A stretch of 64,000 bases of DNA. Origin: Escherichia phage MRostami-2023e. The stretch lies in the sequence record OQ031495. The stretch is one strand, 5' to 3'. Shown here piece by piece: positions 9,086 through 59,724 of the stretch. The position numbers and the translations under genes were made by a program. Every line of letters starts with the position of its first letter. The stretch's first letter is position 1. The notes under the pieces are model-generated. The model searched no databases. It saw only the letters and a list, made by a program, of their open reading frames with translations, and had not been told where the DNA came from.

Positions 9086-9848
<763 letters not shown>

Positions 9849-9856
<8 letters not shown>

Positions 9857-10778
9857 NNNNNNNNNNNNNNNNNNNNNNNNNNNNNNNNNNNNNNNNNNNN
9901 NNNNNNNNNNNNNNNNNNNNNNNNNNNNNNNNNNNNNNNNNNNNNNNNNNNNNNGTAACACCGCCAGGAAGCATCATGCCTTGATGACGTGCTAAAATTT
10001 GGCCATTTAATTCTTTAGCTAAAGCTGTAGCATAGTCTTTAACCCAGCGGTTGTTATATGCGCCTTGTTTAGTTGCAGGATCTTCACCAACTCGACGTCC
10101 GACCAAATTATGGTCCGGATTATCATAACGTTCAGAAATAGACCATGAATCACGAGGACCTACTTGACCGTACCCTACTGTATTTCCTACCATCTTATGG
10201 GTCTCGATATAAGAGCGAACATACGATTCAACGATAATGACATCTTTCTGTCTAAAGTTACCCATTACTTTTAATTGCTCGTTTGCAGAGTTAAACCAAA
10301 AATCTGGAAGAGGAGCAATCATATCTTGAAGCATACCCATATAAGATACTAATTGAGAATAATACCCGAGGTCAGCGCCAAAAGCGTTCGGACCGTAGAA
10401 TTTACCACAATTACTACCCATACCACCTGAAACACCGGCCATTCCTAAAAGGAAATCAGTGAACCATGGATAAGTTGCATTACCATCCATTGAAGTAATA
10501 GAGCCAACGTTTGTTCTTATAATTCTTGTTACAGCAAATACGTTAGAACCACGCATATCAAATACGCCGTGACGGTATTTTTCTTCGTCATCAACAAAAA
10601 ATACATGGAAACCTTTATTCAACCCGTCAAAATGGTATTCGCCATAAAGTTCTAACGCTCGTGAAATACAATCATAAATTTGGTCTGTAGTTAATTCAAC
10701 ATTTACAATAGGAGCGCCTAAACGACGTAATATTACATCTTTTAATTCTTTAGGGTTTTGTGCATTATAACCTGACAT
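9849..10778 (-). CDS. 13: Neck protein gp13 (3' end inside N-masked run; end estimated)
   Basis: N-terminus [30 protein letters not shown]... matches T4 gp13 as recalled. Confidence 0.8.
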
Positions 10779-33827: not shown

Positions 33828-33912
33828 AAATTTGAAAAATTAAAAATAAATGATGTACAAACGCCAAGGACGGTGATACTATAGACTTATCAACTACAGA
33901 GGAGTAAACAAA

Positions 33913-34351: not shown

Positions 34352-34380
34352 TTTACAAACTCTTGAGAGCAGAGTATAAT
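34352..34380 (+). promoter_or_regulatory. Early promoter (tttaca N17 tataat) with -10 in loop of gagagc/gctctc inverted repeat
   Basis: seen in sequence. Confidence 0.55.
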
Positions 34381-42777: not shown

Positions 42778-43217
42778 NNNNNNNNNNNNNNNNNNNNNNN
42801 NNNNNNNNNNNNNNNNNNNNNNNNNNNNNNNNNNNNNNNNNNNNNNNNNNNNNNNNNNNNNNNNNNNNNNNNNNNNNNNNNNNNNNNNNNNNNNNNNNNN
42901 NNNNNNNNNNNNNNNNNNNNNNNNNNNNNNNNNNNNNNNNNNNNNNNNNNNNNNNNNNNNNNNNNNNNNNNNNNNNNNNNNNNNNNNNNNNNNNNNNNNN
43001 NNNNNNNNNNNNNNNNNNNNNNNNNNNNNNNNNNNNNNNNNNNNNNNNNNNNNNNNNNNNNNNNNNNNNNNNNNNNNNNNNNNNNNNNNNNNNNNNNNNN
43101 NNNNNNNNNNNNNNNNNNNNNNNNNNNNNNNNNNNNNNNNNNNNNNNNNNNNNNNNNNNNNNNNNNNNNNNNNNNNNNNNNNNNNNNNNNNNNNNNNNNN
43201 NNNNNNNNNNNNNNNNN
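42778..43217. other. N-masked run (440 nt)
   Basis: run of n. Confidence 1.
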
Positions 43218-49288: not shown

Positions 49289-49628
49289 NNNNNNNNNNNN
49301 NNNNNNNNNNNNNNNNNNNNNNNNNNNNNNNNNNNNNNNNNNNNNNNNNNNNNNNNNNNNNNNNNNNNNNNNNNNNNNNNNNNNNNNNNNNNNNNNNNNN
49401 NNNNNNNNNNNNNNNNNNNNNNNNNNNNNNNNNNNNNNNNNNNNNNNNNNNNNNNNNNNNNNNNNNNNNNNNNNNNNNNNNNNNNNNNNNNNNNNNNNNN
49501 NNNNNNNNNNNNNNNNNNNNNNNNNNNNNNNNNNNNNNNNNNNNNNNNNNNNNNNNNNNNNNNNNNNNNNNNNNNNNNNNNNNNNNNNNNNNNNNNNNNN
49601 NNNNNNNNNNNNNNNNNNNNNNNNNNNN
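49289..49628. other. N-masked run (340 nt)
   Basis: run of n. Confidence 1.
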
Positions 49629-50555: not shown

Positions 50556-51029
50556 ATGATTATCAATGAAAACTCTTGGCACTTTAAACTTTATGCAGCG
50601 TTCAATAGTACATGGAATCGCCCGAAAACATTATGTGCTTATTTTTGGAAAACGTTAATCCCAGTATTGGCTGTTTCAATTATTGGATTTGCGATTTTAG
50701 CAGCAGTCACAATTATTGGCCAGGAAATTTTAACTAGATTCTTTGTTTTTAGCAGTCTATGGACATTAGTTCCGGCCTCAATTGGCGTAGGCATTTTAAT
50801 GGTAGCAGTCATGGCTTTTATTTCTGTAGGGTTGGTAATTGGCCCGTCTTGGTTGTTAGACAAATATAACGACAGAAAATATTATAAAGAAATTGAGTTC
50901 ATTGCACAAAACCAAGAACGAATTAAAAATGGACTTGAACCTATTGAACGTAAGAAATCATTAATAGGTGAATACCTTAAAGCTCGTAAAGAAAAAGTCT
51001 GTCCTACTCTTGAATATAAGGCTAAATGA
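50556..51029 (+). CDS. Multi-TM membrane protein (157 aa)
   Basis: hydrophobic segments; ORF track. Confidence 0.6.
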   Translation: MIINENSWHFKLYAAFNSTWNRPKTLCAYFWKTLIPVLAVSIIGFAILAAVTIIGQEILTRFFVFSSLWTLVPASIGVGILMVAVMAFISVGLVIGPSWLLDKYNDRKYYKEIEFIAQNQERIKNGLEPIERKKSLIGEYLKARKEKVCPTLEYKAK

Positions 51030-52015
51030 TGAAAACAATTATGAAAGGCTACTTTGGTAGTCACCTTTATGGAACGTCCACTCCTGAATCTGACGTCGAT
51101 TTTAAAGAAATTTATGTCCCTCATGCTCGTGATATCTTGACCGGTAACGTTAAAGAACACATGAGCAAGAACACGAATAACACATCTTCTAAGAACACAA
51201 AAGACGACGTGGACCATGAGTTGTATAGTCTCAAATATTTCTTTAAACTAGCTGCGGATGGTGAAACTGTCGCATTAGATATGCTTCACACTCCACCAAG
51301 CCTAGTAGTTAAATCTGATTTGCCTGATGTATGGAAGTATATTCAAGATAACAGGTCTCGTTTCTATACCACTAACATGAAATCTTATTTAGGGTATGTC
51401 CGTAAGCAAGCTTCTAAATACGGTGTCAAGGGTTCTCGACTGGCTATTCTTCGACAAGCCCTTAAACGTTCTAATGAATGGGGACAATACTTTGATAATG
51501 GTGCAGTAATTCGTTTATCACATATGAAGAATGTTCTGCCTGTAGGTGAATTTGCTTCGTGGGTTGAAACCGAAAACGAGAAAACAGGTAAGCAAACATT
51601 CTATAATCTGTTGGACCGTAAATTCCAAGACACGTTAACCAATAAAGAGTTCAATGCCATCCTGGTTAAACTGGAAGAGAACTACGGTGAACGTGCTCGT
51701 AAGGCAGAAGCTAACGAAGGTATTGACTGGAAAGCATTGAGTCATGCGTGTCGTGGTGGACTTCAATTATTGGAAATTTACAAAACCGGCGACCTGGTTT
51801 ACCCACTTCAGGATGCTCCATTTATTCTCGATGTTAAGCTTGGTAAACATACGTTTAAAACTGTACAAGAATTCCTAGAAGATATCGTTGACCAAGTTGA
51901 ACATGCATCGGAACAAGCCGCTAAGAACGGTATGCAACAAAAAGTAGATATGAGTTTCTGGGATGATTTCCTTGAGCAAGTCTATCTCGAAAATCATAAT
52001 TCTTACTATAAATAA
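51026..52015 (+). CDS. Nucleotidyltransferase-fold protein (pol-beta superfamily signature)
   Basis: GSHLYGTSTPESDVDF = G-S-x(n)-D-x-D motif near N-terminus; 329 aa. Confidence 0.6.
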   Translation: MMKTIMKGYFGSHLYGTSTPESDVDFKEIYVPHARDILTGNVKEHMSKNTNNTSSKNTKDDVDHELYSLKYFFKLAADGETVALDMLHTPPSLVVKSDLPDVWKYIQDNRSRFYTTNMKSYLGYVRKQASKYGVKGSRLAILRQALKRSNEWGQYFDNGAVIRLSHMKNVLPVGEFASWVETENEKTGKQTFYNLLDRKFQDTLTNKEFNAILVKLEENYGERARKAEANEGIDWKALSHACRGGLQLLEIYKTGDLVYPLQDAPFILDVKLGKHTFKTVQEFLEDIVDQVEHASEQAAKNGMQQKVDMSFWDDFLEQVYLENHNSYYK

Positions 52016-52046
52016 ATAGATAAATAACCATTAACTTGAGGTAAAT

Positions 52047-52325
52047 ATGAAAAAATTAGTAATTGGTTTATTCGCAGTAATGATGGCATTCTCTGTTGGT
52101 GCTACCACGGGTGCAGCCAGCGGTGCAGGAGCTGGTGGTAACCAGTCTTCTGGGCCTTCCAATGGTTCGGTAAATGCATCACATTCTCAAGGTATTGAGA
52201 ACATTAAATCAAGCTATATTAATAGCACGGCCGGACAAGCAACTGAAGCATGGTCAAAGGGTCGAGTAGTTACTCACTCCGTATTCTGTGATATGCCTAA
52301 TTATGTTGCTAAGTGCGATAAGTAA
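52047..52325 (+). CDS. Secreted Gly/Ser-rich small protein with two C-terminal Cys
   Basis: Signal peptide MKKLVIGLFAVMMAFSVGA; tataaata at 52007-52014; terminator-like hairpin downstream. Confidence 0.6.
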   Translation: MKKLVIGLFAVMMAFSVGATTGAASGAGAGGNQSSGPSNGSVNASHSQGIENIKSSYINSTAGQATEAWSKGRVVTHSVFCDMPNYVAKCDK

Positions 52326-52329
52326 ATGT

Positions 52330-52349
52330 GGGGACCTTCGGGTCCCTTT
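52330..52349 (+). terminator. Terminator-like hairpin (gggacc-ttcg-ggtccc, short U-run)
   Basis: seen in sequence. Confidence 0.5.
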
Positions 52350-52443
52350 AGGGGGTTAAAATATTTTTAAAAAGTAGTGTACATGCTTTTAGGATATGTT
52401 ATTATAGACCTATCGAAACGAAATGAGTAAATTGGAGAATAAA

Positions 52444-53424
52444 ATGTTCAACGTTCAAATCAAAAAAGGTATCTATCGTAATAACGAAATCTCTGGTTCT
52501 TATGTTGCCACAAAGACCTGGTTCCCAGCAAAGCTTAATCCTGAATGTTCCCACTTAGGTGACGGTAAAATTTTCGTTATGATTGATGGTTCTGAACGTG
52601 GAGTATGGGTCTTCAAATCAGACATCGTAATGGAAGGAGTTGAGACATCACCAGTTGCAGTTGTTGAAAGCACTGAAGATATGAAAACTCGTATCAACAA
52701 ACGCTTTAAAGTAATGAACATGATGACGAATGGCATTATCGATGGCAAAATTCGTTCACTCATTATTTCAGGTGCAGCCGGTATTGGTAAGACGTATTCT
52801 CTGGATAAAGCACTTAATAATGCTAATGATAATGGTTTCATCAAATACAAAAGCATTAATGGTAAAATCTCTGGTATTGGCCTTTACGAACAACTTTGGC
52901 TCAACCGTGATGCAGACAGCGTTCTCTTAATCGATGACGTTGACGTATTCTCAGATATGGACATCTTGAATCTTCTTAAAGCAGCATTAGATACTGGAGA
53001 TAAACGCAAAGTTTGTTGGAGCACTGCGTCATCTTATCTCGATGATAAGGGTATTGATAAAGAATTTGAGTTTGAAGGTACTATCGTTTTCATTACAAAC
53101 GTTGATATCGATAAAGAGTTAGAACGCGGTTCGAAACTTGCTCCACACCTTCAAGCTTTAGTATCTCGCTCAGTGTATCTCGACCTTGGAGTACACTCTA
53201 ATGAAGAGATTATGGTTCGAGTTGAAGATGTAATATTATCTACTGACATGATGCAGAAACGTGGTCTGACTGATGCAGAAACGTATAAAGCATTGTCCTG
53301 GATGAAGGCTAATGTATCTCGTCTTCGCAATGTATCATTACGTACCGCTCTTTATGTAGCAGATTTTATTTCAACTGATAAAGATGGTTGGGAGGAAATC
53401 TCTGAAGTAACTTTACTGAAATAA
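52444..53424 (+). CDS. AAA+/P-loop ATPase (326 aa)
   Basis: Walker A GAAGIGKTYS, Walker B VLLIDDVD; start at ATG with SD ggag. Confidence 0.65.
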   Translation: MFNVQIKKGIYRNNEISGSYVATKTWFPAKLNPECSHLGDGKIFVMIDGSERGVWVFKSDIVMEGVETSPVAVVESTEDMKTRINKRFKVMNMMTNGIIDGKIRSLIISGAAGIGKTYSLDKALNNANDNGFIKYKSINGKISGIGLYEQLWLNRDADSVLLIDDVDVFSDMDILNLLKAALDTGDKRKVCWSTASSYLDDKGIDKEFEFEGTIVFITNVDIDKELERGSKLAPHLQALVSRSVYLDLGVHSNEEIMVRVEDVILSTDMMQKRGLTDAETYKALSWMKANVSRLRNVSLRTALYVADFISTDKDGWEEISEVTLLK

Positions 53425-53562
53425 GCTTATAGGAAGTTCTGAGGTAACAAAAGCCATAAAGATGAATAATCATATGGCTTACCTCAAAGAAGGACACCAG
53501 GAACCTACTGAGGGCATAGAAATATTTAAAAATAATGATGTACAAATCAAAGAGGATATGTT

Positions 53563-53850
53563 ATGGATTTTATGCAAAAAATTAAAGCCGCAGTCGAACT
53601 CTATGCTCATCGTATGGTTAGTTCTACAATGCAATATAGCGAGGAGGTTCGCCAGGACTCTTCCTTGAAAGGAAAAACTAAAGCCTTAATTACCTTAGAC
53701 CGTTTGCAAAAGAATGCCATAGAGATGCTCCAGTACGACAAGGGTGTATATAAGAAAGAACTGGAAGAGAAACTTAAATCTGAAAAATTACAAAAAATCC
53801 CGAAGTCTGTTTGGTTCAGTGGAAAAAATACCGAAAAAAGTTTCTTTTAG
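53563..53850 (+). CDS. Hypothetical protein (95 aa)
   Basis: ORF track. Confidence 0.5.
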   Translation: MDFMQKIKAAVELYAHRMVSSTMQYSEEVRQDSSLKGKTKALITLDRLQKNAIEMLQYDKGVYKKELEEKLKSEKLQKIPKSVWFSGKNTEKSFF

Positions 53851-53853
53851 TTG

Positions 53854-53888
53854 TTTACAAGGTCTATAGTTATGTTATTATAGACCTA
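53854..53888 (+). promoter_or_regulatory. Early promoter cassette with perfect 9-bp inverted repeat aggtctata/tatagacct around the -10
   Basis: gtttac ... tattat. Confidence 0.6.
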
Positions 53889-53908
53889 TCAACTACTGGA
53901 GGTAAAAC

Positions 53909-54436
53909 ATGAACGCTAAAGATATTTTCAACCTGGTAAATTATAACGACGGTAAATTTAAATCTGAAGCACAAAGCAAGTTCTTTAATGACGTTGCTTA
54001 TGGTAACGAGATTACCGTGGACGGAGGTCAGATTTTCAAATCTCGCTGGAATTGGATTGTTATCATCGATTCAGTTGGAATTGTGGAAGTCTACAAAAAC
54101 ACTAACAAAAAACGTACATTATTCTGGTCTCGTGAAACTAACGAGCAGTACAAAAAGGATAAAGCATCTCGTTTATCCAAAGTAACCCAGGAAGATATCG
54201 AGTTTATCAAGAAAGATATCGAGATGTACGAAAATTTAATCGCTGAAGACCAGGCCGTACTCGATAAGTTTGATGAAATTAAAGCTTCTCGTGAAATCCC
54301 TGACTTCATGAAAGAAACAGTAAACGAACGATACGCTCTCACTTCAGAACGTATTGCAAACTATACAAAACAGAAAGCAGAACGTATTAGTACTCTTCGG
54401 AAATTTGAAGAACGTTTAAAGACGGTTCACGCATAA
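53909..54436 (+). CDS. Hypothetical protein (175 aa)
   Basis: ORF track; SD ggagg. Confidence 0.6.
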   Translation: MNAKDIFNLVNYNDGKFKSEAQSKFFNDVAYGNEITVDGGQIFKSRWNWIVIIDSVGIVEVYKNTNKKRTLFWSRETNEQYKKDKASRLSKVTQEDIEFIKKDIEMYENLIAEDQAVLDKFDEIKASREIPDFMKETVNERYALTSERIANYTKQKAERISTLRKFEERLKTVHA

Positions 54437-54463
54437 ACGCTTTACCCAAGGACGGGTTATAAT
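54437..54463 (+). promoter_or_regulatory. Candidate MotA-dependent middle promoter (GCTTTA box ~12-13 bp upstream of TATAAT)
   Basis: aaacgcttta ... tataat. Confidence 0.45.
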
Positions 54464-54498
54464 GGTTCTGAGTTCCAATTCAATCTGAGGAAATAGTT

Positions 54499-55494
54499 AT
54501 GAGCATTACATCTGATGCGGTAAAACATGAAATTAACGGTTTATGTGCTTCACAGATTAAAGTGTGGTTTAAAGACCATAACGATCGCAGAGCACTTAAT
54601 TATGAACAAATTGCTATCCAAGTTCATCAATTACTGGTTAGTAAATTTGATTTTCATATGCCGTCTGAAATCTATACTAATCTGCCGCGAGCACTTATTA
54701 AAGCGTGTAAAGGTTATGGAAAATCAATGGCTGATGGAATCTTCAGCGCGCTGAATAAACTTAACGTTCTGTCGATGATTAACTCTAACAACATCCTGCG
54801 TAATCTAGGACGTACTGATTTGTTCGGTCGTGAACAGTGTAAAATGCCTTTGAAATGGATTGTTGCTCATCTTAACGAGAACCAAACACGTTTTATGGCC
54901 GTAACAGCACGCTTACAAATGGGCCTAGATCGTCAGATGAACTTTAAAACTCATCCACGTTATTCAGGTTCAACTGACTTTTATAAATGTGAGCTTCAAA
55001 AGGTTGCAGGTAAAACTGTCTTAGTAGTTCGTGTAACGTTTGAAGGACGACGTCAAGGATATTTTGACATAATCGGCTCCGGGCTTAAACATTGCGGATT
55101 TATCGACGAAGTTGATATCAAGCGAGACGGCACCGGATATCGTATTGGGTATGTTTGTACTCTTAAAGAAGAGATTTCAGGACCAGCACCAGGACTAAAA
55201 GACGTTAGATATAAAGACGAGCTCGTTGAAGAAATAAAAGAAGTTGAATATGATATCAACCAAGAAGATGCTCTTAAAGACCTTATTGATGAACTGAACC
55301 AAGACGTTATTCCTGTTCAGAAATTTGAATCAAAACATGCTGAGCAAATCAAATACTTTGAAGCTTTGATTAACGAACTTAATGTAACTATTCAACAGAC
55401 TGACGATGAAATCTCACGATTAGCAGGCTTAAATGGTAAAAATAAAACAGAACGAGCTAATCTTATTCAGGTAGTAAAACTTCTTAAGGAATGA
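54499..55494 (+). CDS. Hypothetical protein with C-terminal coiled coil (331 aa)
   Basis: ORF track. Confidence 0.6.
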   Translation: MSITSDAVKHEINGLCASQIKVWFKDHNDRRALNYEQIAIQVHQLLVSKFDFHMPSEIYTNLPRALIKACKGYGKSMADGIFSALNKLNVLSMINSNNILRNLGRTDLFGREQCKMPLKWIVAHLNENQTRFMAVTARLQMGLDRQMNFKTHPRYSGSTDFYKCELQKVAGKTVLVVRVTFEGRRQGYFDIIGSGLKHCGFIDEVDIKRDGTGYRIGYVCTLKEEISGPAPGLKDVRYKDELVEEIKEVEYDINQEDALKDLIDELNQDVIPVQKFESKHAEQIKYFEALINELNVTIQQTDDEISRLAGLNGKNKTERANLIQVVKLLKE

Positions 55495-55495
55495 T

Positions 55496-55523
55496 GTACA
55501 ACCAAGGATGGTTGGAGTATAAT
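55496..55523 (+). promoter_or_regulatory. Early promoter cassette (gtacaaccaaggatggttggagtataat), copy 1
   Basis: near-identical to cassette at 56490. Confidence 0.6.
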
Positions 55524-55549
55524 AAATTTTTCAACATGAGGAATATAAA

Positions 55550-56485
55550 ATGGCTTTTATTACACGTAAAGAACTTATCAAAGAATTTACCTCGAACGCA
55601 TATACTCCAGGACCTAATCCTATCCGTATGCCTGTAAAGACTCCTGAAGAGATTGAGGAAGTCTGTTCATATTATGGGATTACTTCTCGTAAGTTTACTC
55701 AATTTGAATGCGTTACTAACACACCCGTTAAAGAGTTCATTAAAAATGGTGAGTTCAGCCGTTTATTAGCCAAACAGAAACTTCGTAATTTTTGTATTGG
55801 CGGTGAAGGACAATATTTCGCTAAGCAGTTCCGGAATAACCTTAACAATCTGATGGCCATTGCTTCTCGTATTCGTCCTCAAGCAATTAACATGAAACAT
55901 TTGAAATATACTTACGATAAGTTGGAAATCATGGTTATCAGTGAGAATGAGTTCACTCTTACGTATAAACCTAAGAATGATAACGTTGCTCGTGTATTTC
56001 ACCAAGCGTTGGAAGTTTTAGGTGATAATATCCACCAGATTAAAGCAATTTATTCACGTGAGCTTAATATTATCAACCCCATCAAGAATAAGGGTCATAT
56101 TGCTATCCAGGCTCGTGTATCTATTGGTAAAAAGGTTCCTGCGCCATGGTGGCACAAAGACTCTGAATACTATCAAAATCTTAAAAAGGAAAATGCATTG
56201 TTTGAAGCATCGCTTACTGGAACCCCAATTGAACAGGCCGAAGTCCTAAGTGCTTATTCTACTTCTNNNNNNNNNNNNNNNNNNNNNNNNNNNAAACTAA
56301 AAGTTTCTAATGACCTTCTTCCGGCCGAAGATTACCATTACAATCAAATCAAGGCCACTATGGACCAACTGTCTGTTGAACTTGACAAAGCACAAGCTAA
56401 GCTTCGTGATGCTCAAAGTGTTGTAACGAATCTCCAGTTGCAGTATTCTAAACTTTTTAACGCAATGAATGCATTAAAATCATAA
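55550..56485 (+). CDS. Hypothetical protein with C-terminal coiled coil (311 aa; 27 nt masked)
   Basis: ORF track. Confidence 0.6.
   Translation: MAFITRKELIKEFTSNAYTPGPNPIRMPVKTPEEIEEVCSYYGITSRKFTQFECVTNTPVKEFIKNGEFSRLLAKQKLRNFCIGGEGQYFAKQFRNNLNNLMAIASRIRPQAINMKHLKYTYDKLEIMVISENEFTLTYKPKNDNVARVFHQALEVLGDNIHQIKAIYSRELNIINPIKNKGHIAIQARVSIGKKVPAPWWHKDSEYYQNLKKENALFEASLTGTPIEQAEVLSAYSTSXXXXXXXXXKLKVSNDLLPAEDYHYNQIKATMDQLSVELDKAQAKLRDAQSVVTNLQLQYSKLFNAMNALKS
56267..56293. other. N-masked run (27 nt)
   Basis: run of n. Confidence 1.
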
Positions 56486-56489
56486 AATA

Positions 56490-56519
56490 GTTTACAACCA
56501 AGGATGGTTGGAGTATAAT
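56490..56519 (+). promoter_or_regulatory. Early promoter cassette (gtttacaaccaaggatggttggagtataat), copy 2
   Basis: 26-nt identity with cassette at 55496. Confidence 0.6.
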
Positions 56520-56547
56520 GAATCTATCTTAACGAGAGGAAAATATT

Positions 56548-57498
56548 ATGACACGTTCACATTACATTGAATACTTTGCAGGTCTTATCGCTAACGTTCA
56601 CGCCCAACGTGCTTCTGGTGCACTAGGATTTGATGTTCCACACCGAGATGTAGTAAGTGGTATTCTTCGCGATTTTGGTACATACATAGGCCAAGAAAAT
56701 CATATCTGTAAAGATACTCAAAATGCGTATTCTCATTCGTTAGGGACGTTGCTTCAATGGTTCAAACGTTCTCGTTTATTATCTTCTACTGTAGCTCGCG
56801 ATAACATTAAAAACTTTATGAAACCGAGCTTTATTAAATCTGTGACATCTAAAACTGATTTGGTTGAATTCACTATTGTTAATGATGTTAAAAAGACTCA
56901 TTTGGCTGATTGGTTATCTACCATTCCTGAAACTAAATTTGCTGATAAATTTGCTTGTGAATTCAATAACCAAGTGAATATGCTTTTTAAACATTCTCGT
57001 AAATTATTCACAGGCGGCGATGATCGTACAAATAAAGTTCATGTTAAAGATTGGGTTACTGCAGTATTCAAACCAACCGGTAATGGTAACGCATCATTAT
57101 CAATTGATATCCAGGTTCCTTATTACTACTCACGTAATCTCGGTACCATGAAAGCCGAAGAAATTAATAAGCGCAACAAAACCATTCGTTCGCTGTCTTA
57201 TAAACTTCGCATGATGTTAAGAATCATGGACGTGGTAGAAATGTATGATGAAACCGAAGATAATGGTTCAATGTTATACAGTTCTCGCATTCAAATTAAG
57301 TTGAAGAACCCTAACGAGTATAAGCCTAAGCCTATTAAAGAACCTAAAGTAGAAAAAGTTGATAACTTAAGAGAAGAACGCGAATATCTCAAATCTCGTC
57401 TGAAAGAAGTCGAAGCCCAGATTGCAGAACAAACTAAATCGTTAAAAGCTCTGAATGCGAAAGCGGATGGTTTACGAAATGCCATTGAGGTGTTATAA
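56548..57498 (+). CDS. Hypothetical protein with C-terminal coiled coil (316 aa)
   Basis: ORF track. Confidence 0.6.
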   Translation: MTRSHYIEYFAGLIANVHAQRASGALGFDVPHRDVVSGILRDFGTYIGQENHICKDTQNAYSHSLGTLLQWFKRSRLLSSTVARDNIKNFMKPSFIKSVTSKTDLVEFTIVNDVKKTHLADWLSTIPETKFADKFACEFNNQVNMLFKHSRKLFTGGDDRTNKVHVKDWVTAVFKPTGNGNASLSIDIQVPYYYSRNLGTMKAEEINKRNKTIRSLSYKLRMMLRIMDVVEMYDETEDNGSMLYSSRIQIKLKNPNEYKPKPIKEPKVEKVDNLREEREYLKSRLKEVEAQIAEQTKSLKALNAKADGLRNAIEVL

Positions 57499-57803
57499 TG
57501 AAACTACGTCTTTTAGAGGATATTGATATGAGCACTAATCATGGCTTGGTTAAGTTTATTGACGATAGTTCAAAGATCGAATTTGTTCAGCGAGATAAAA
57601 TCCACGGTGAAGAAGAGTTCGTTCCTCCGGCATGGAACGAAATAATGAAAATGGTTGAACGACGTGAAAATGCTGCCAAATCGGCAGCAAAACATCCATG
57701 TCCGGAATGTGGAACTATCCAAGTCCAACTGGTTAACTGGACCAGTGATAACTTGAAATTGAAATGCCGTAAATGCTTCCACAAATTTGAGAGAACATTA
57801 TAA
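57498..57803 (+). CDS. Small Cys4 zinc-ribbon-like protein (101 aa)
   Basis: CPEC ... CRKC. Confidence 0.55.
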   Translation: MKLRLLEDIDMSTNHGLVKFIDDSSKIEFVQRDKIHGEEEFVPPAWNEIMKMVERRENAAKSAAKHPCPECGTIQVQLVNWTSDNLKLKCRKCFHKFERTL

Positions 57804-58216
57804 TGAGATATAGCCTTCGTTGTTTTATCGCAGCTTTAGTTTTTGCTATTATTCCATTCATTTGGAACAGCCAGAATACTTACATGGAAACTAAAGTAAT
57901 TCCTGTGGAGGTAGTGGAATTAATTTCAGGTCAATCTACAGGAAAATATTCTAAATTAGAATTTATTGCAGTTTATAAAGATGAGCAAGGACGAGTTTTT
58001 GACAGGCGTGTATCTCCATCATTTTATACGCTTCTGAATAAAGGTGATACGATAGCTATAGAAATTCGTGAGATGGATATCAAACAAACTACTAAAGATA
58101 ACTTGATTTGGTTCTTTGGTACAGTGTTGTTGGTTTCTATCTGTATCACAGGTTTTATTACATGTATTGTATTTGGCATTGCATATTTAATCGATGAAAG
58201 GAAAAATAATGTTTAA
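57803..58216 (+). CDS. Membrane protein (137 aa)
   Basis: N- and C-terminal hydrophobic segments. Confidence 0.55.
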   Translation: MRYSLRCFIAALVFAIIPFIWNSQNTYMETKVIPVEVVELISGQSTGKYSKLEFIAVYKDEQGRVFDRRVSPSFYTLLNKGDTIAIEIREMDIKQTTKDNLIWFFGTVLLVSICITGFITCIVFGIAYLIDERKNNV

Positions 58217-58472
58217 AGTGTACGGGTATGACTCTACTATTCATAAATGCATTTATTGTGATAATGCGAAACGATTGCTGGCTGTTAAGAAACAGCCGTT
58301 CGAATTCATTAATGTTATGCCAGAAAAAGGTGTTTTTGATGATGAGAAAATTGCTGAGCTTCTGGTTAAGCTTGGACGTGAATCACAAGTCGGATTGACT
58401 ATGCCTCAAGTGTTTGCTCCTGATGGAACTTCGATCGGTGGCTTTGACCAACTACGAGAATATTTTAAATGA
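58209..58472 (+). CDS. nrdC: Thioredoxin/glutaredoxin NrdC
   Basis: MFKVYGYDSTIHKCIYCDNAKRLL... matches T4 NrdC (87 aa) as recalled. Confidence 0.9.
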   Translation: MFKVYGYDSTIHKCIYCDNAKRLLAVKKQPFEFINVMPEKGVFDDEKIAELLVKLGRESQVGLTMPQVFAPDGTSIGGFDQLREYFK

Positions 58473-58825
58473 CATATTCATTAAATCTTAAAGATTTCCA
58501 AGATGTATACGAAGTTTGTGCCAATGAACTTGGTCCTGATGCTCCAACTATTATTGAAGTTTTAAATGTGCTCCCTTCATCATTAGCTTACGAAGCCAAA
58601 TCATGGGGTTGGAACGACACTGTCGTTCGTGATGACCTTTACGTCCTGATGAACGATATGATGGTTAAAAAGGCAGAACCGGTTGCACCAATGGTTACCA
58701 TTACCGTTGAAGAATATAATCGCCTGCAAGCCATTGAAGAGCTTCTGTGGAATATTGAATGTGACCTGCCGTCAGGGCTAGAATCCTGGATTGATTATGA
58801 AGAGCTCAATAAACTCCGGGGTTAA
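58469..58825 (+). CDS. Hypothetical protein (118 aa)
   Basis: ORF track. Confidence 0.55.
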   Translation: MTYSLNLKDFQDVYEVCANELGPDAPTIIEVLNVLPSSLAYEAKSWGWNDTVVRDDLYVLMNDMMVKKAEPVAPMVTITVEEYNRLQAIEELLWNIECDLPSGLESWIDYEELNKLRG

Positions 58826-58874
58826 ACCGTGGTATTCTGCTCGTTGGGAGACTGTCGAGCCAGACGTTGAAACA

Positions 58875-58904
58875 GTTTACAACGACGAAGAAACGTGTTA
58901 TGAT
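58875..58904 (+). promoter_or_regulatory. Early promoter (gtttac N18 tatgat)
   Basis: seen in sequence. Confidence 0.5.
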
Positions 58905-58953
58905 GAACCTTCAATAAATGAATTAATTGATATGGAAATGGGAAGAGATTATT

Positions 58954-59124
58954 ATGCAAGTTAAATTATTGTACCGTTTATTAAAAAATGGCAAACATGA
59001 TTGGTATTTGCTTATTAAAACCGATCCGAATTTTTTCTCTGGACAACCATTTACAGTTCGTCCTACTAAACGTCAGCTTCGCAAAGCTAAACGTTCTCAT
59101 CGTAACTTTTATAGAGAATATTGA
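58954..59124 (+). CDS. Small basic protein (56 aa)
   Basis: internal ATG of ORF 58927..59124. Confidence 0.4.
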   Translation: MQVKLLYRLLKNGKHDWYLLIKTDPNFFSGQPFTVRPTKRQLRKAKRSHRNFYREY

Positions 59125-59125
59125 T

Positions 59126-59539
59126 ATGAATATTTCTGAAACTCGCGGTAAATGGTTCAAGATTGTTAAAGAAGATGAAGAACTACAAGTCAAGTTTCCT
59201 GAATTAAAGAAAGATACGATCATCAAGGTAATTGGTACTACTACCGAAGATGGTTATGGCGACCATGGCATTATCGAAGTGATGTTGAACACAGGTGAGA
59301 AACTTTGCATCTATGACCGTGATACTTCTCTTTGGTGCTTCTGGGAATCCCATTCAATAGATGAACTCGAAGAAATTGACCAAGTAGTTTGTGATGGTGG
59401 ACTTGGCGAATTCGAAGGTGAACGTATTTCTTATGCTTTAGCTAAATTAGCCGGACAAGAAAATAACGACGGCTATGAAGGTAACCTGATGCAAGCAGCC
59501 GCAGAATACATTGAATATTTAGAAAGACGTTTAAGTTAA
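59126..59539 (+). CDS. Hypothetical protein (138 aa)
   Basis: ATG after previous stop; in-frame part of ORF 58988..59539. Confidence 0.55.
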   Translation: MNISETRGKWFKIVKEDEELQVKFPELKKDTIIKVIGTTTEDGYGDHGIIEVMLNTGEKLCIYDRDTSLWCFWESHSIDELEEIDQVVCDGGLGEFEGERISYALAKLAGQENNDGYEGNLMQAAAEYIEYLERRLS

Positions 59540-59724
59540 NNNNNNNNNNNNNNNNNNNNNNNNNNNNNNNNNNNNNNNNNNNNNNNNNNNNNNNNNNNNN
59601 NNNNNNNNNNNNNNNNNNNNNNNNNNNNNNNNNNNNNNNNNNNNNNNNNNNNNNNNNNNNNNNNNNNNNNNNNNNNNNNNNNNNNNNNNNNNNNNNNNNN
59701 NNNNNNNNNNNNNNNNNNNNNNNN
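59540..59724. other. N-masked run (185 nt) flanked by identical 9-mers ttaagttaa
   Basis: run of n. Confidence 1.

Follow-up and report, generated by a model that had tools for sequence, protein, structure and literature searches.

PeSL-type promoter-hairpin cassettes and a probable family of diverged paralogues in the nrdC-gene 49 region of a Mosigvirus genome

The closest described counterparts of the DNA considered here are the early-promoter stem-loop elements (PeSLs) of T4-like phages, a mechanism class that has been in the literature since 2010 (PMC2839356; PMC4122927). A PeSL starts at the stop codon of the upstream gene, contains an early promoter with a stem-loop mostly between the boxes at -35 and -10 or over the -10 box, and ends with a Shine-Dalgarno sequence and the ATG of the following gene; a part in the shuffling of genes within hyperplastic regions has been proposed for such elements (Arbiol et al. 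2010, PMC2839356; Comeau et al. 2014, PMC4122927). In phage RB49 the stem-loop terminated transcription in a reporter and recombination was mapped to the loop, a variant built on middle promoters (PmSL) was described for phage nt-1, and the paper on phages PST and T4 marks PeSLs at ~43-51 kb of PST, spanning the nrdC region (PMC2839356; PMC4122927). Here this region is considered in a stretch of 64,000 nucleotides (nt) of Escherichia phage MRostami-2023e (record OQ031495), analysed whole and referred to below as the window, where three consecutive genes at positions 54437-57498 stand behind short promoter-hairpin cassettes. The explanation favoured, and considered highly likely, is that these genes belong together with nrdC.4 to one very diverged paralogue family located behind PeSL-type cassettes, and that recombination between the cassettes swaps the genes.

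The likeness to PeSLs lies in the intergenic position within a hyperplastic region, in the repetition of the element round the genome, and in its occurrence where close relatives differ by an insertion, a deletion or a replacement. The differences are that the present example comes from a Mosigvirus, while the described pairs are RB49/phi1, PST/T4, and nt-1/KVP40; that an invariant AGGA loop is placed on a CCA/TGG stem base, while the published stems are of G-run/C-run (RB49) or AGNA/TCNT (PST) type; and that the same hairpin occurs in early-type as well as in middle-type promoters. The morons of lambdoid phages and the integron cassettes are two other systems in which an accessory gene travels singly as a unit, together with expression signals or into them (see also the discussion in PMC2839356). 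Integrons employ a site-specific integrase and attC sites, and we know of no conserved flanking recombination sequence in morons; at the present locus, in contrast to both, the repeated promoter cassette itself supplies the homology. To our knowledge, there is no dedicated recombinase for promoter-cassette exchange.

Over 54437-57498 the sequence agrees fully (100% identity) with Escherichia phage vB_EQ1, and more than 130 other records match it at 97-99%; the window is assigned to Mosigvirus, a T4-like phage, and the region to the nrdC-gene 49 hyperplastic region, a block of non-essential early genes. Three open reading frames (ORFs) of similar size follow each other on the + strand, as was noticed in the preliminary description: 54499-55494 (331 amino acids, aa; designated c6-prime), 55550-56485 (311 aa as read; c5-prime), and 56548-57498 (316 aa; c3). 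ORF 54499 is a divergent homologue of T4 nrdC.6 (30% identity, blastp E 1e-18; PHROG 2257, E 1e-127), with Pfam PF26899 as a precomputed assignment on its relatives, while ORF 56548 is the orthologue of T4 nrdC.3 (57% identity, blastp E 4e-121; PHROG 1435). The middle ORF 55550, which is the cargo between identical cassette cores, is the counterpart of T4 nrdC.5; by BLAST the two are weakly similar (~24% identity), and both match Pfam PF23882 (DUF7235, the T4 NrdC.5 family), the former with E 6.5e-119 (397 bits vs a cut-off of 30, residues 15-310) and the latter with E 5e-126. Since the 27 N at 56267-56293 within this ORF replace 51 nt (17 codons) of the otherwise identical vB_EQ1, its true length is 319 aa, as in vB_EQ1.

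Cassette 1 (55495-55549, + strand) lies between ORFs 54499 and 55550 and contains the promoter boxes TGTACA (-35, 55495-55500) and TATAAT (-10, 55518-55523), the hairpin CAACCA-AGGA-TGGTTG (55499-55514) followed by GGAG (55514-55517), and the Shine-Dalgarno sequence GAGGAA (55538-55543) before the ATG at 55550. Cassette 2 (56486-56547, + strand), between ORFs 55550 and 56548, has the boxes TTTACA (56491-56496) and TATAAT (56514-56519), the same hairpin at 56495-56510 with GGAG at 56510-56513, and the Shine-Dalgarno sequence GAGAGGAA (56534-56541) before the ATG at 56548. Thus both copies have the layout T(T/G)TACA-N17-TATAAT, with a 6-bp stem and the AGGA loop inside the 17-nt spacer; the Shine-Dalgarno site follows ~15 nt past the -10 box, GAGGAA or GAGAGGAA standing 6-7 nt before each ATG. 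The upstream genes' stop codons have their last base at 54436, 55494, and 56485, and the hairpins begin 5-10 nt beyond them. The 26-nt cassette ACAACCAAGGATGGTTGGAGTATAAT was indeed found exactly twice in the window (55498-55523 and 56494-56519), as had been stated, and no match at up to 3 mismatches was obtained in 100 shuffles; the exact direct repeat is in fact 27 nt (55497-55523 and 56493-56519), within a 43-nt repeat at 86% identity and with a spacing of 996 nt.

The promoter of cassette 2 agrees with sigma-70 at 11 of 12 positions, which is the best match in 51000-59500, and that of cassette 1 at 10 of 12. The segment 56491-56519 is an exact fit to the T4/PST PeSL consensus TTTACW-N17-TAYWAT, and 55495-55523 has one mismatch (TGTACA); the cassette 2 site also carries a promoter annotation in phages NBG1 and SA79RD. 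Every PeSL feature that can be read from the letters is present in both cassettes, which are classed here as PeSL-type modules. Their exact sequence is restricted to Mosigvirus, where it occurs at 254 places in 146 records.

In the complete vB_EQ1 genome the strand of the early genes has 37 early-promoter matches and the opposite one 3; 11 of the 37 hold a perfect hairpin of at least 5 bp, compared with 2.0 +/- 1.3 when the spacers are shuffled. The core CAAGGA(T/C)G is found in promoter context at 8 sites of this genome, namely, 7 early-promoter matches and a middle-type cassette after nrdC.8. One of these sites, at vB_EQ1 record position 131884 and outside the window, is a third exact copy of 29 nt, with a similar 5' untranslated region and unrelated neighbour genes. 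The cassette is a dispersed regulatory module and is not private to these three genes. The genome-wide search, by which the preliminary description wished its proposal to be judged, therefore came out half against it, about 5 further early promoters carrying members of the hairpin-promoter family. Two more promoter-hairpin cassettes were observed in the window at 33854-33882 and 34352-34380: at one of these two sites the hairpin is of AGGA type with a G-T pair (CGCC-AAGGAC-GGTG), and at the other it belongs to a second class, ACTCT-TGAGAGC-AGAGT, which overlaps the -10 box and has 3 occurrences in the vB_EQ1 genome, the loop of one copy being slightly altered.

The first gene is preceded by a related element, cassette 0 (54437-54498, + strand), between the nrdC.8 homologue and ORF 54499. 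It includes a MotA-box-like CGCTTTA (54438-54444) located 13 nt upstream of the -10 box, the hairpin ACCC-AAGGAC-GGGT (54444-54457), TATAAT (54458-54463), and the Shine-Dalgarno sequence GAGGAA (54487-54492). In the SA79RD record this site is annotated as a T4 middle promoter, GCTT(N13-15)TATAAT, and the element resembles a middle-type (MotA) relative of cassettes 1 and 2, similar to PmSL. The same cassette follows nrdC.8 in T4, VR7, VR5, and KIT01, with an 8-bp stem TTATACCA/TGGTATAA overlapping the -10 box.

Exchange is indicated by genomes without the middle gene. A synthetic junction query, composed of 200 nt ending in cassette 1 and the 200 nt following cassette 2, was searched against the phage collection and was matched in one piece, at 92-99% identity, in 21 of 155 matching Mosigvirus records, while the remainder gave two pieces ~1 kb apart; a nrdC.5-type gene is present in 133 records, so that these and the 21 make up almost the whole set of 155. 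In p000v, AV110, and ESCO47, where the junctions were read directly, just one cassette separates a nrdC.6-type gene from the nrdC.3-type gene after it, the left flank of the cassette being that of cassette 1 and the right flank that of cassette 2. In ESCO47 (locus L039, ~2680-2730) the one cassette present is of hybrid origin: CAACCA, the left arm, is of the Mosigvirus type, while the right arm and the -10 region form 21 nt identical to the cassette of the Dhakavirus VR5, so that the complementarity of the stem is broken. This looks like a recombination scar with a crossover in or near the loop. The presence of the middle gene does not track flanking-gene similarity, as AV110 is without it, yet has the nrdC.3 closest to that of the window (99.2%), compared with 94-96% in the carriers NBG1 and SA79RD. 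Assembly collapse of the repeat is an unlikely source of the gene-less genomes, since they are 21 independent complete genomes.

The comparison of synteny in related phages, which had been suggested, is likewise in line with exchange, the gene content between cassettes varying among genera. The order is nrdC.8-.7-.6-.5-.4-.3-.2-.1 in Tequatrovirus, nrdC.8-.6-(.5)-.3-.2-.7 in Mosigvirus, and nrdC.8-.6-orf94-.5-.4-.2-.1 in Dhakavirus and Gaprivervirus. Each cassette begins a few bases past the upstream stop codon and bears a sigma-70 early promoter, or a MotA-type middle promoter for the first gene; according to the mechanism considered here, homologous recombination between cassettes would excise, insert, and exchange genes, each with its own expression signals, as in the mini-circle model published for PeSLs. 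The proposal that regulatory DNA was duplicated in modules and its cargo swapped is partly supported and in essence upheld, as the modules are of PeSL type and the middle gene is present or absent exactly at the repeat; it is to be refined in that the cassette is not special to these genes. The element of the first ORF is of middle type, not early.

The alternative that survives best concerns the direction of the event, namely, that the gene-less genomes are ancestral and that a single insertion brought in the middle gene as a cassette of promoter plus gene, in place of recurrent deletion. It is a real possibility that falls somewhat short of an even chance. The nrdC.5-like gene of the window is ~24% identical to that of T4, compared with 30-83% for its neighbours, nrdC.5 has no cassette of its own in other genera, and integration of a circle at a resident cassette would yield exactly two identical flanking cores. 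On the other hand, all other genera have nrdC.5 between nrdC.6 and nrdC.4/3, so loss is equally parsimonious, and presence and absence are scattered relative to flanking-gene similarity. Either direction, insertion or deletion, is compatible with the PeSL mechanism.

Several other rearrangements and irregularities were observed in related sequences. In ACG-C40 (locus L004, 5727-6135) a 2.6-kb deletion begins at nrdC.5 codon ~67 and reaches nrdC.3 codon ~236, with the loss of all of nrdC.4, leaving an unannotated 45-codon remnant of nrdC.3; a cassette-mediated origin was ruled out here, as ~9-nt microhomology inside the genes was used, and not all rearrangements are based on cassettes. The metagenomic protein P0060 (129 aa) consists of ~28 unrelated N-terminal residues and the last ~100 residues of a nrdC.6-type protein; its gene is truncated or rearranged, or else it is a further product of recombination in the array. 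In teqdroes (locus L005, 4411) the annotated nrdC.4 start is an ATG that overlaps the -10 box (TATAATG) and gives 343 aa instead of 333; this start is probably mis-called.

The hairpin family is found 3' of nrdC.8 and 5' of nrdC.4/nrdC.3 in T4, teqdroes, JEP6, ACG-C40, VR7, VR5, and KIT01. Its centre CCA-AGGA-TGG is near-constant and the outer stem varies in complementary fashion, the variants being TTATACCA/TGGTATAA, AGCCA/TGGCT, CAACCA/TGGTTG, CATCCA/TGGATG, and CCACA/TGTGG. Among 14 distinct cassettes from Mosig-, Tequatro-, Dhaka- and Gaprivervirus 90.5% of pair cells were Watson-Crick or G-U versus 63% in shuffles (0 of 500 as high), the covariation score was 0.64 versus 0.15 in shuffles, controls with the partner slid by 1-3 columns were at most 46% paired, and two-sided changes were present in 4 of 6 stem pairs. 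This covariation across four genera marks the hairpin as a selected structure. A degenerate cassette pattern found 6 stretches, too few for a large covariation sample. Predicted fold energies range from -4.9 to -9.6 kcal/mol across cassettes (-6.9 kcal/mol for the hairpin of cassette 1), and Rfam contained no match to the hairpin at E up to 1. Since some stems include G-T pairs and reporter assays have been published on the RB49 element, the hairpin would most likely work in the sense strand, where read-through RNA would fold into an attenuator or a structure at the 3' end. Two other candidate roles were tried and dropped: that of the cassette as an intrinsic terminator, as there is no T-run, and that of a RegB cleavage site for the GGAG that follows the hairpin, because GAG before TATAAT is shared by a whole class of the early promoters of the genome, and GGAG is more simply a promoter feature.

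It is possible, and can be held tentatively, that the hairpin is the working part, whether as a Rho-independent terminator, a processing or stability element, or a DNA cruciform or recombination signal, with the promoter incidental; this would be an addition to the explanation by cassette exchange and not an exclusive alternative. The start of the hairpin 5-10 nt past each upstream stop codon, its retention in both early-type and middle-type promoter contexts, the G-T pairs in some stems that favour a sense-strand structure, the termination of reporter transcription by the RB49 stem-loop, and the recombination in the RB49 loop together with the loop-crossover look of ESCO47 all speak for such a role, but the hairpin is weak (-5 to -10 kcal/mol), has no U-tract and was never called as a terminator, is always at a fixed position between the promoter boxes, and has no Rfam family.

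No pairwise BLAST match with E <1 was found among the three proteins, in agreement with the little obvious similarity reported at the outset, and they belong to three separate PHROGs and to Pfam PF26899, PF23882, and PF26897. Family alignments from nine phages and database relatives were converted to profiles and compared with each other by hhalign. The nrdC.3 and nrdC.4 profiles matched with a probability of 97.7% and E 1.6e-12 (E 3.7e-13 with the tails removed), and the merged nrdC.3+4 profile matched nrdC.5 with a probability of 92.8% and E 3.9e-7 over 165 columns of the globular part, which was essentially the same without the last 65 residues (E 7e-7), whereas reversed-profile controls gave E >=0.2. 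Individual family profiles against nrdC.6 were not significant, while the merged nrdC.3+4+5 profile matched nrdC.6 with E 6e-4 to 6e-5 over 84-89 columns, with a score of 41.0, whereas 40 column shuffles reached no more than 22.8 and the reversed profile 17.3. Two motifs, F-K-x-S/G-R-L-L-S-x-x-x-A-x-x-x-L-x-N-F and F-x-N-N-x-x-x-L-x-x-A-S-R-L, are common to all four families and, together with the C-terminal ending L-x-x-A-[LIV]-x-x-[LI]-K, occur in the same order in nrdC.3/4/5/6. By these comparisons ORFs 55550 and 56548 are identified as true distant paralogues, and ORF 56548 (nrdC.3) as a distant paralogue of nrdC.4; ORF 54499 is probably a paralogue of the other two. The family plan would comprise an N-terminal helical region with the two motifs, followed by a middle part rich in beta structure and, at the C-terminus, by a tail that is helical or a coiled coil.

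In an exhaustive HMMER search the nrdC.6-type profile found only 6 representatives among 1.84 billion proteins and so added no depth to the alignment, and this type is confined to T-even-like phages; an IMG/VR scan with nrdC.8 gave 15 loci and no genera beyond those already sampled. The T4 nrdC.6 itself (locus L001, 8067-8894) is 275 aa long versus 280-295 aa in aligned relatives, and its last ~16 residues are unrelated to the conserved C-terminus of the family; the T4 reference, as a sequence or as a strain, may thus carry a frameshift here.

The heptad-rich C-terminus claimed for all three proteins was recovered for the second and third and is weak in the first, according to a crude heptad score compared with 200 shuffles. 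In ORF 55550 the coiled-coil segment covers the last ~53 residues (56324-56482, + strand; score 0.90, reached in 0 of 200 shuffles, p<0.005), and in ORF 56548 residues ~275-316 (57370-57495, + strand; score 0.86, likewise 0 of 200, p<0.005), while for the helical segment of ORF 54499 (55339-55491, + strand; residues ~281-331) the score was 0.60 (p ~0.17). AlphaFold2 was run on the two usable alignments, those of ORFs 56548 and 54499, which contain close relatives only. The model of ORF 56548 has a single helix over 275-315 with a predicted local distance difference test (pLDDT) value of 66-80, and the low-confidence model of ORF 54499 has several shorter helices over 256-330 with breaks, including one at GLNGKNK. 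In both low-confidence models the order of elements is alike: five helices at the N-terminus are followed by two more near 118-150, by a beta hairpin at 162-179, and by a helical region at the C-terminus. Foldseek against BFVD returned the own family of each query and weak matches in the T4-like phages PM2, IME523, Acj61, and 133, and in E5EYP0/E5EYP1; against PDB there was nothing with E <0.07, and profile searches of PDB sequences gave coiled-coil noise only. E5EYP0 and E5EYP1 are consecutive accessions, the 318-aa one weakly matching the nrdC.6-type model and the 348-aa one the nrdC.3-type model; they may be neighbouring genes of one phage, which hints at a similar tandem array in more distant phages.

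That the three proteins are unrelated, with length and helical tails a matter of coincidence or of convergence on an oligomerising tail, appears improbable. Such an origin would suit the lack of pairwise BLAST similarity, the three PHROGs and three Pfam families, and the lack of a cross-family fold match, but profiles link nrdC.3/.4/.5 in the globular part (E 4e-7) and nrdC.6 (E 6e-5) far above shuffled and reversed controls, the two motifs and the C-terminal ending are common and in the same order, the models have a similar order of helices and strands, and the genes are always adjacent. An origin of the cassette similarity merely in strong early promoters under the same selection, with nothing mobile or recombining, is very improbable. 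T4-type early promoters do share the -35 and -10 boxes and some flanking bases at 37 sites of the genome, but here the identity spans the entire 17-nt spacer, which is variable among the other ~30 early promoters, the stem bases covary and are not fixed, and there is an exact recombinant junction in 21 genomes with a hybrid hairpin in one.

Several points weigh against the explanation by a paralogue family with exchangeable cassettes. A single ancient event spread by ordinary flanking recombination would give the same junctions. Cassette 0 has no -35 box at proper spacing and does not fit the early-promoter consensus, its identity as a middle promoter resting on a consensus and on the annotation of another group; none of the three hairpins has a T-run behind it, and the cassettes are all free of predicted intrinsic terminators. 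For the first protein, homology to the second and third has only moderate support (hhalign probability 28-65%), the structure models have low confidence (pLDDT 54.8 for ORF 56548 and 48.7 for ORF 54499), and Foldseek searches of BFVD and PDB with these low-confidence models as queries gave no cross-family match. Finally, the anti-defence role discussed below is carried over from T4, whose protein has only ~24% identity with the copy in the window.

This role is suggested by work on T4. The T4 nrdC.5 alone restores infection of cells with the Dsr1 sirtuin defence (Srikant et al. 2022, PMC9391042), and in the same T4 block nrdC.1 inhibits Septu (bioRxiv 2025.11.20.689424) and gp49.2 inhibits OLD (PMC13096335). 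Because a single family member, T4 NrdC.5, counters Dsr1 and because of the neighbourhood of nrdC.1 and gp49.2, a counter-defence role may be considered, and the three ORFs are most likely early-expressed host-takeover or counter-defence accessory paralogues in self-contained cassettes. ORF 55550 has the same DUF7235 as T4 NrdC.5 over its full length and an equivalent position in the array; it differs in its low identity, and the counteraction of Dsr1 is a feature of the T4 protein. A further-reaching proposal, which must be regarded as rather doubtful, is that nrdC.3/4/5/6 form a diversifying counter-defence family and the cassettes a recombinase-free, integron-like exchange system for its alleles. 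A variable N-terminal domain would then set which immune system is neutralised (Dsr1 in the case of T4 NrdC.5), the shared coiled-coil tail would give oligomerisation, and T-even-type phages would shuffle anti-defence alleles via promoter-hairpin cassettes with the AGGA loop, in which the hairpin, as an undescribed structured cis-element, would mark the crossover and insulate neighbouring transcription units.

The surrounding genes agree with the T4 block in part. The upstream neighbour, ORF 53909, is the counterpart of T4 nrdC.8 (83% identity), the next two ORFs downstream of 56548 are a nrdC.2 homologue and a relocated nrdC.7, and in comparison with T4 no counterpart of nrdC.4 and nrdC.1 was found in the block of the window. 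The nrdC.7 homologue (57803-58216), a predicted membrane protein, stands between nrdC.2 and nrdC, while in T4 it is between nrdC.8 and nrdC.6; the cassette after nrdC.8 is kept in both arrangements, and therefore a different gene follows the same cassette. Within the last codons of ORF 56548 there is an early-promoter match at 57471-57499 (TTTACG-N17-TATAAT, with TG before the -10 box), which overlaps the stop codon of this ORF and the ATG of the nrdC.2 homologue and is an early promoter in the SA79RD annotation; because the match overlies these codons, the conserved protein ending GLRNAIEVL may be partly constrained by the DNA signal. The label "thioredoxin", given in GenBank to nrdC.x genes of many phage records, was rejected for the three ORFs, as it had no Pfam or profile support, and is apparently a spill-over from the neighbouring nrdC gene. 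The window contains 13 runs of 8 to 440 N, masked or unresolved (e.g., 9804-9954, 42778-43217, 49289-49628, 56267-56293, and 59540-59724), and because the run at 56267-56293, the one compared, is shorter than the sequence it replaces, the coordinates of the window are not colinear with the reference.

In summary, no current view is overturned by this locus. What is new is a Mosigvirus PeSL example with clean occupied and empty states and a hybrid scar, an AGGA hairpin supported by covariation in early- and middle-type promoters of four genera, and sequence evidence for one family of nrdC.3, nrdC.4, nrdC.5, and probably nrdC.6. It is a very clean natural PeSL example, in which identical promoter cores of 27 nt stand on both sides of one gene, dozens of sequenced relatives display either the occupied or the exactly recombined state, and the cargo family has a member with proven anti-defence activity. 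The AGGA hairpin provides a defined target for asking what PeSL stem-loops do, and the family link makes four T4 "hypothetical proteins" a testable set of candidate immune-evasion paralogues.

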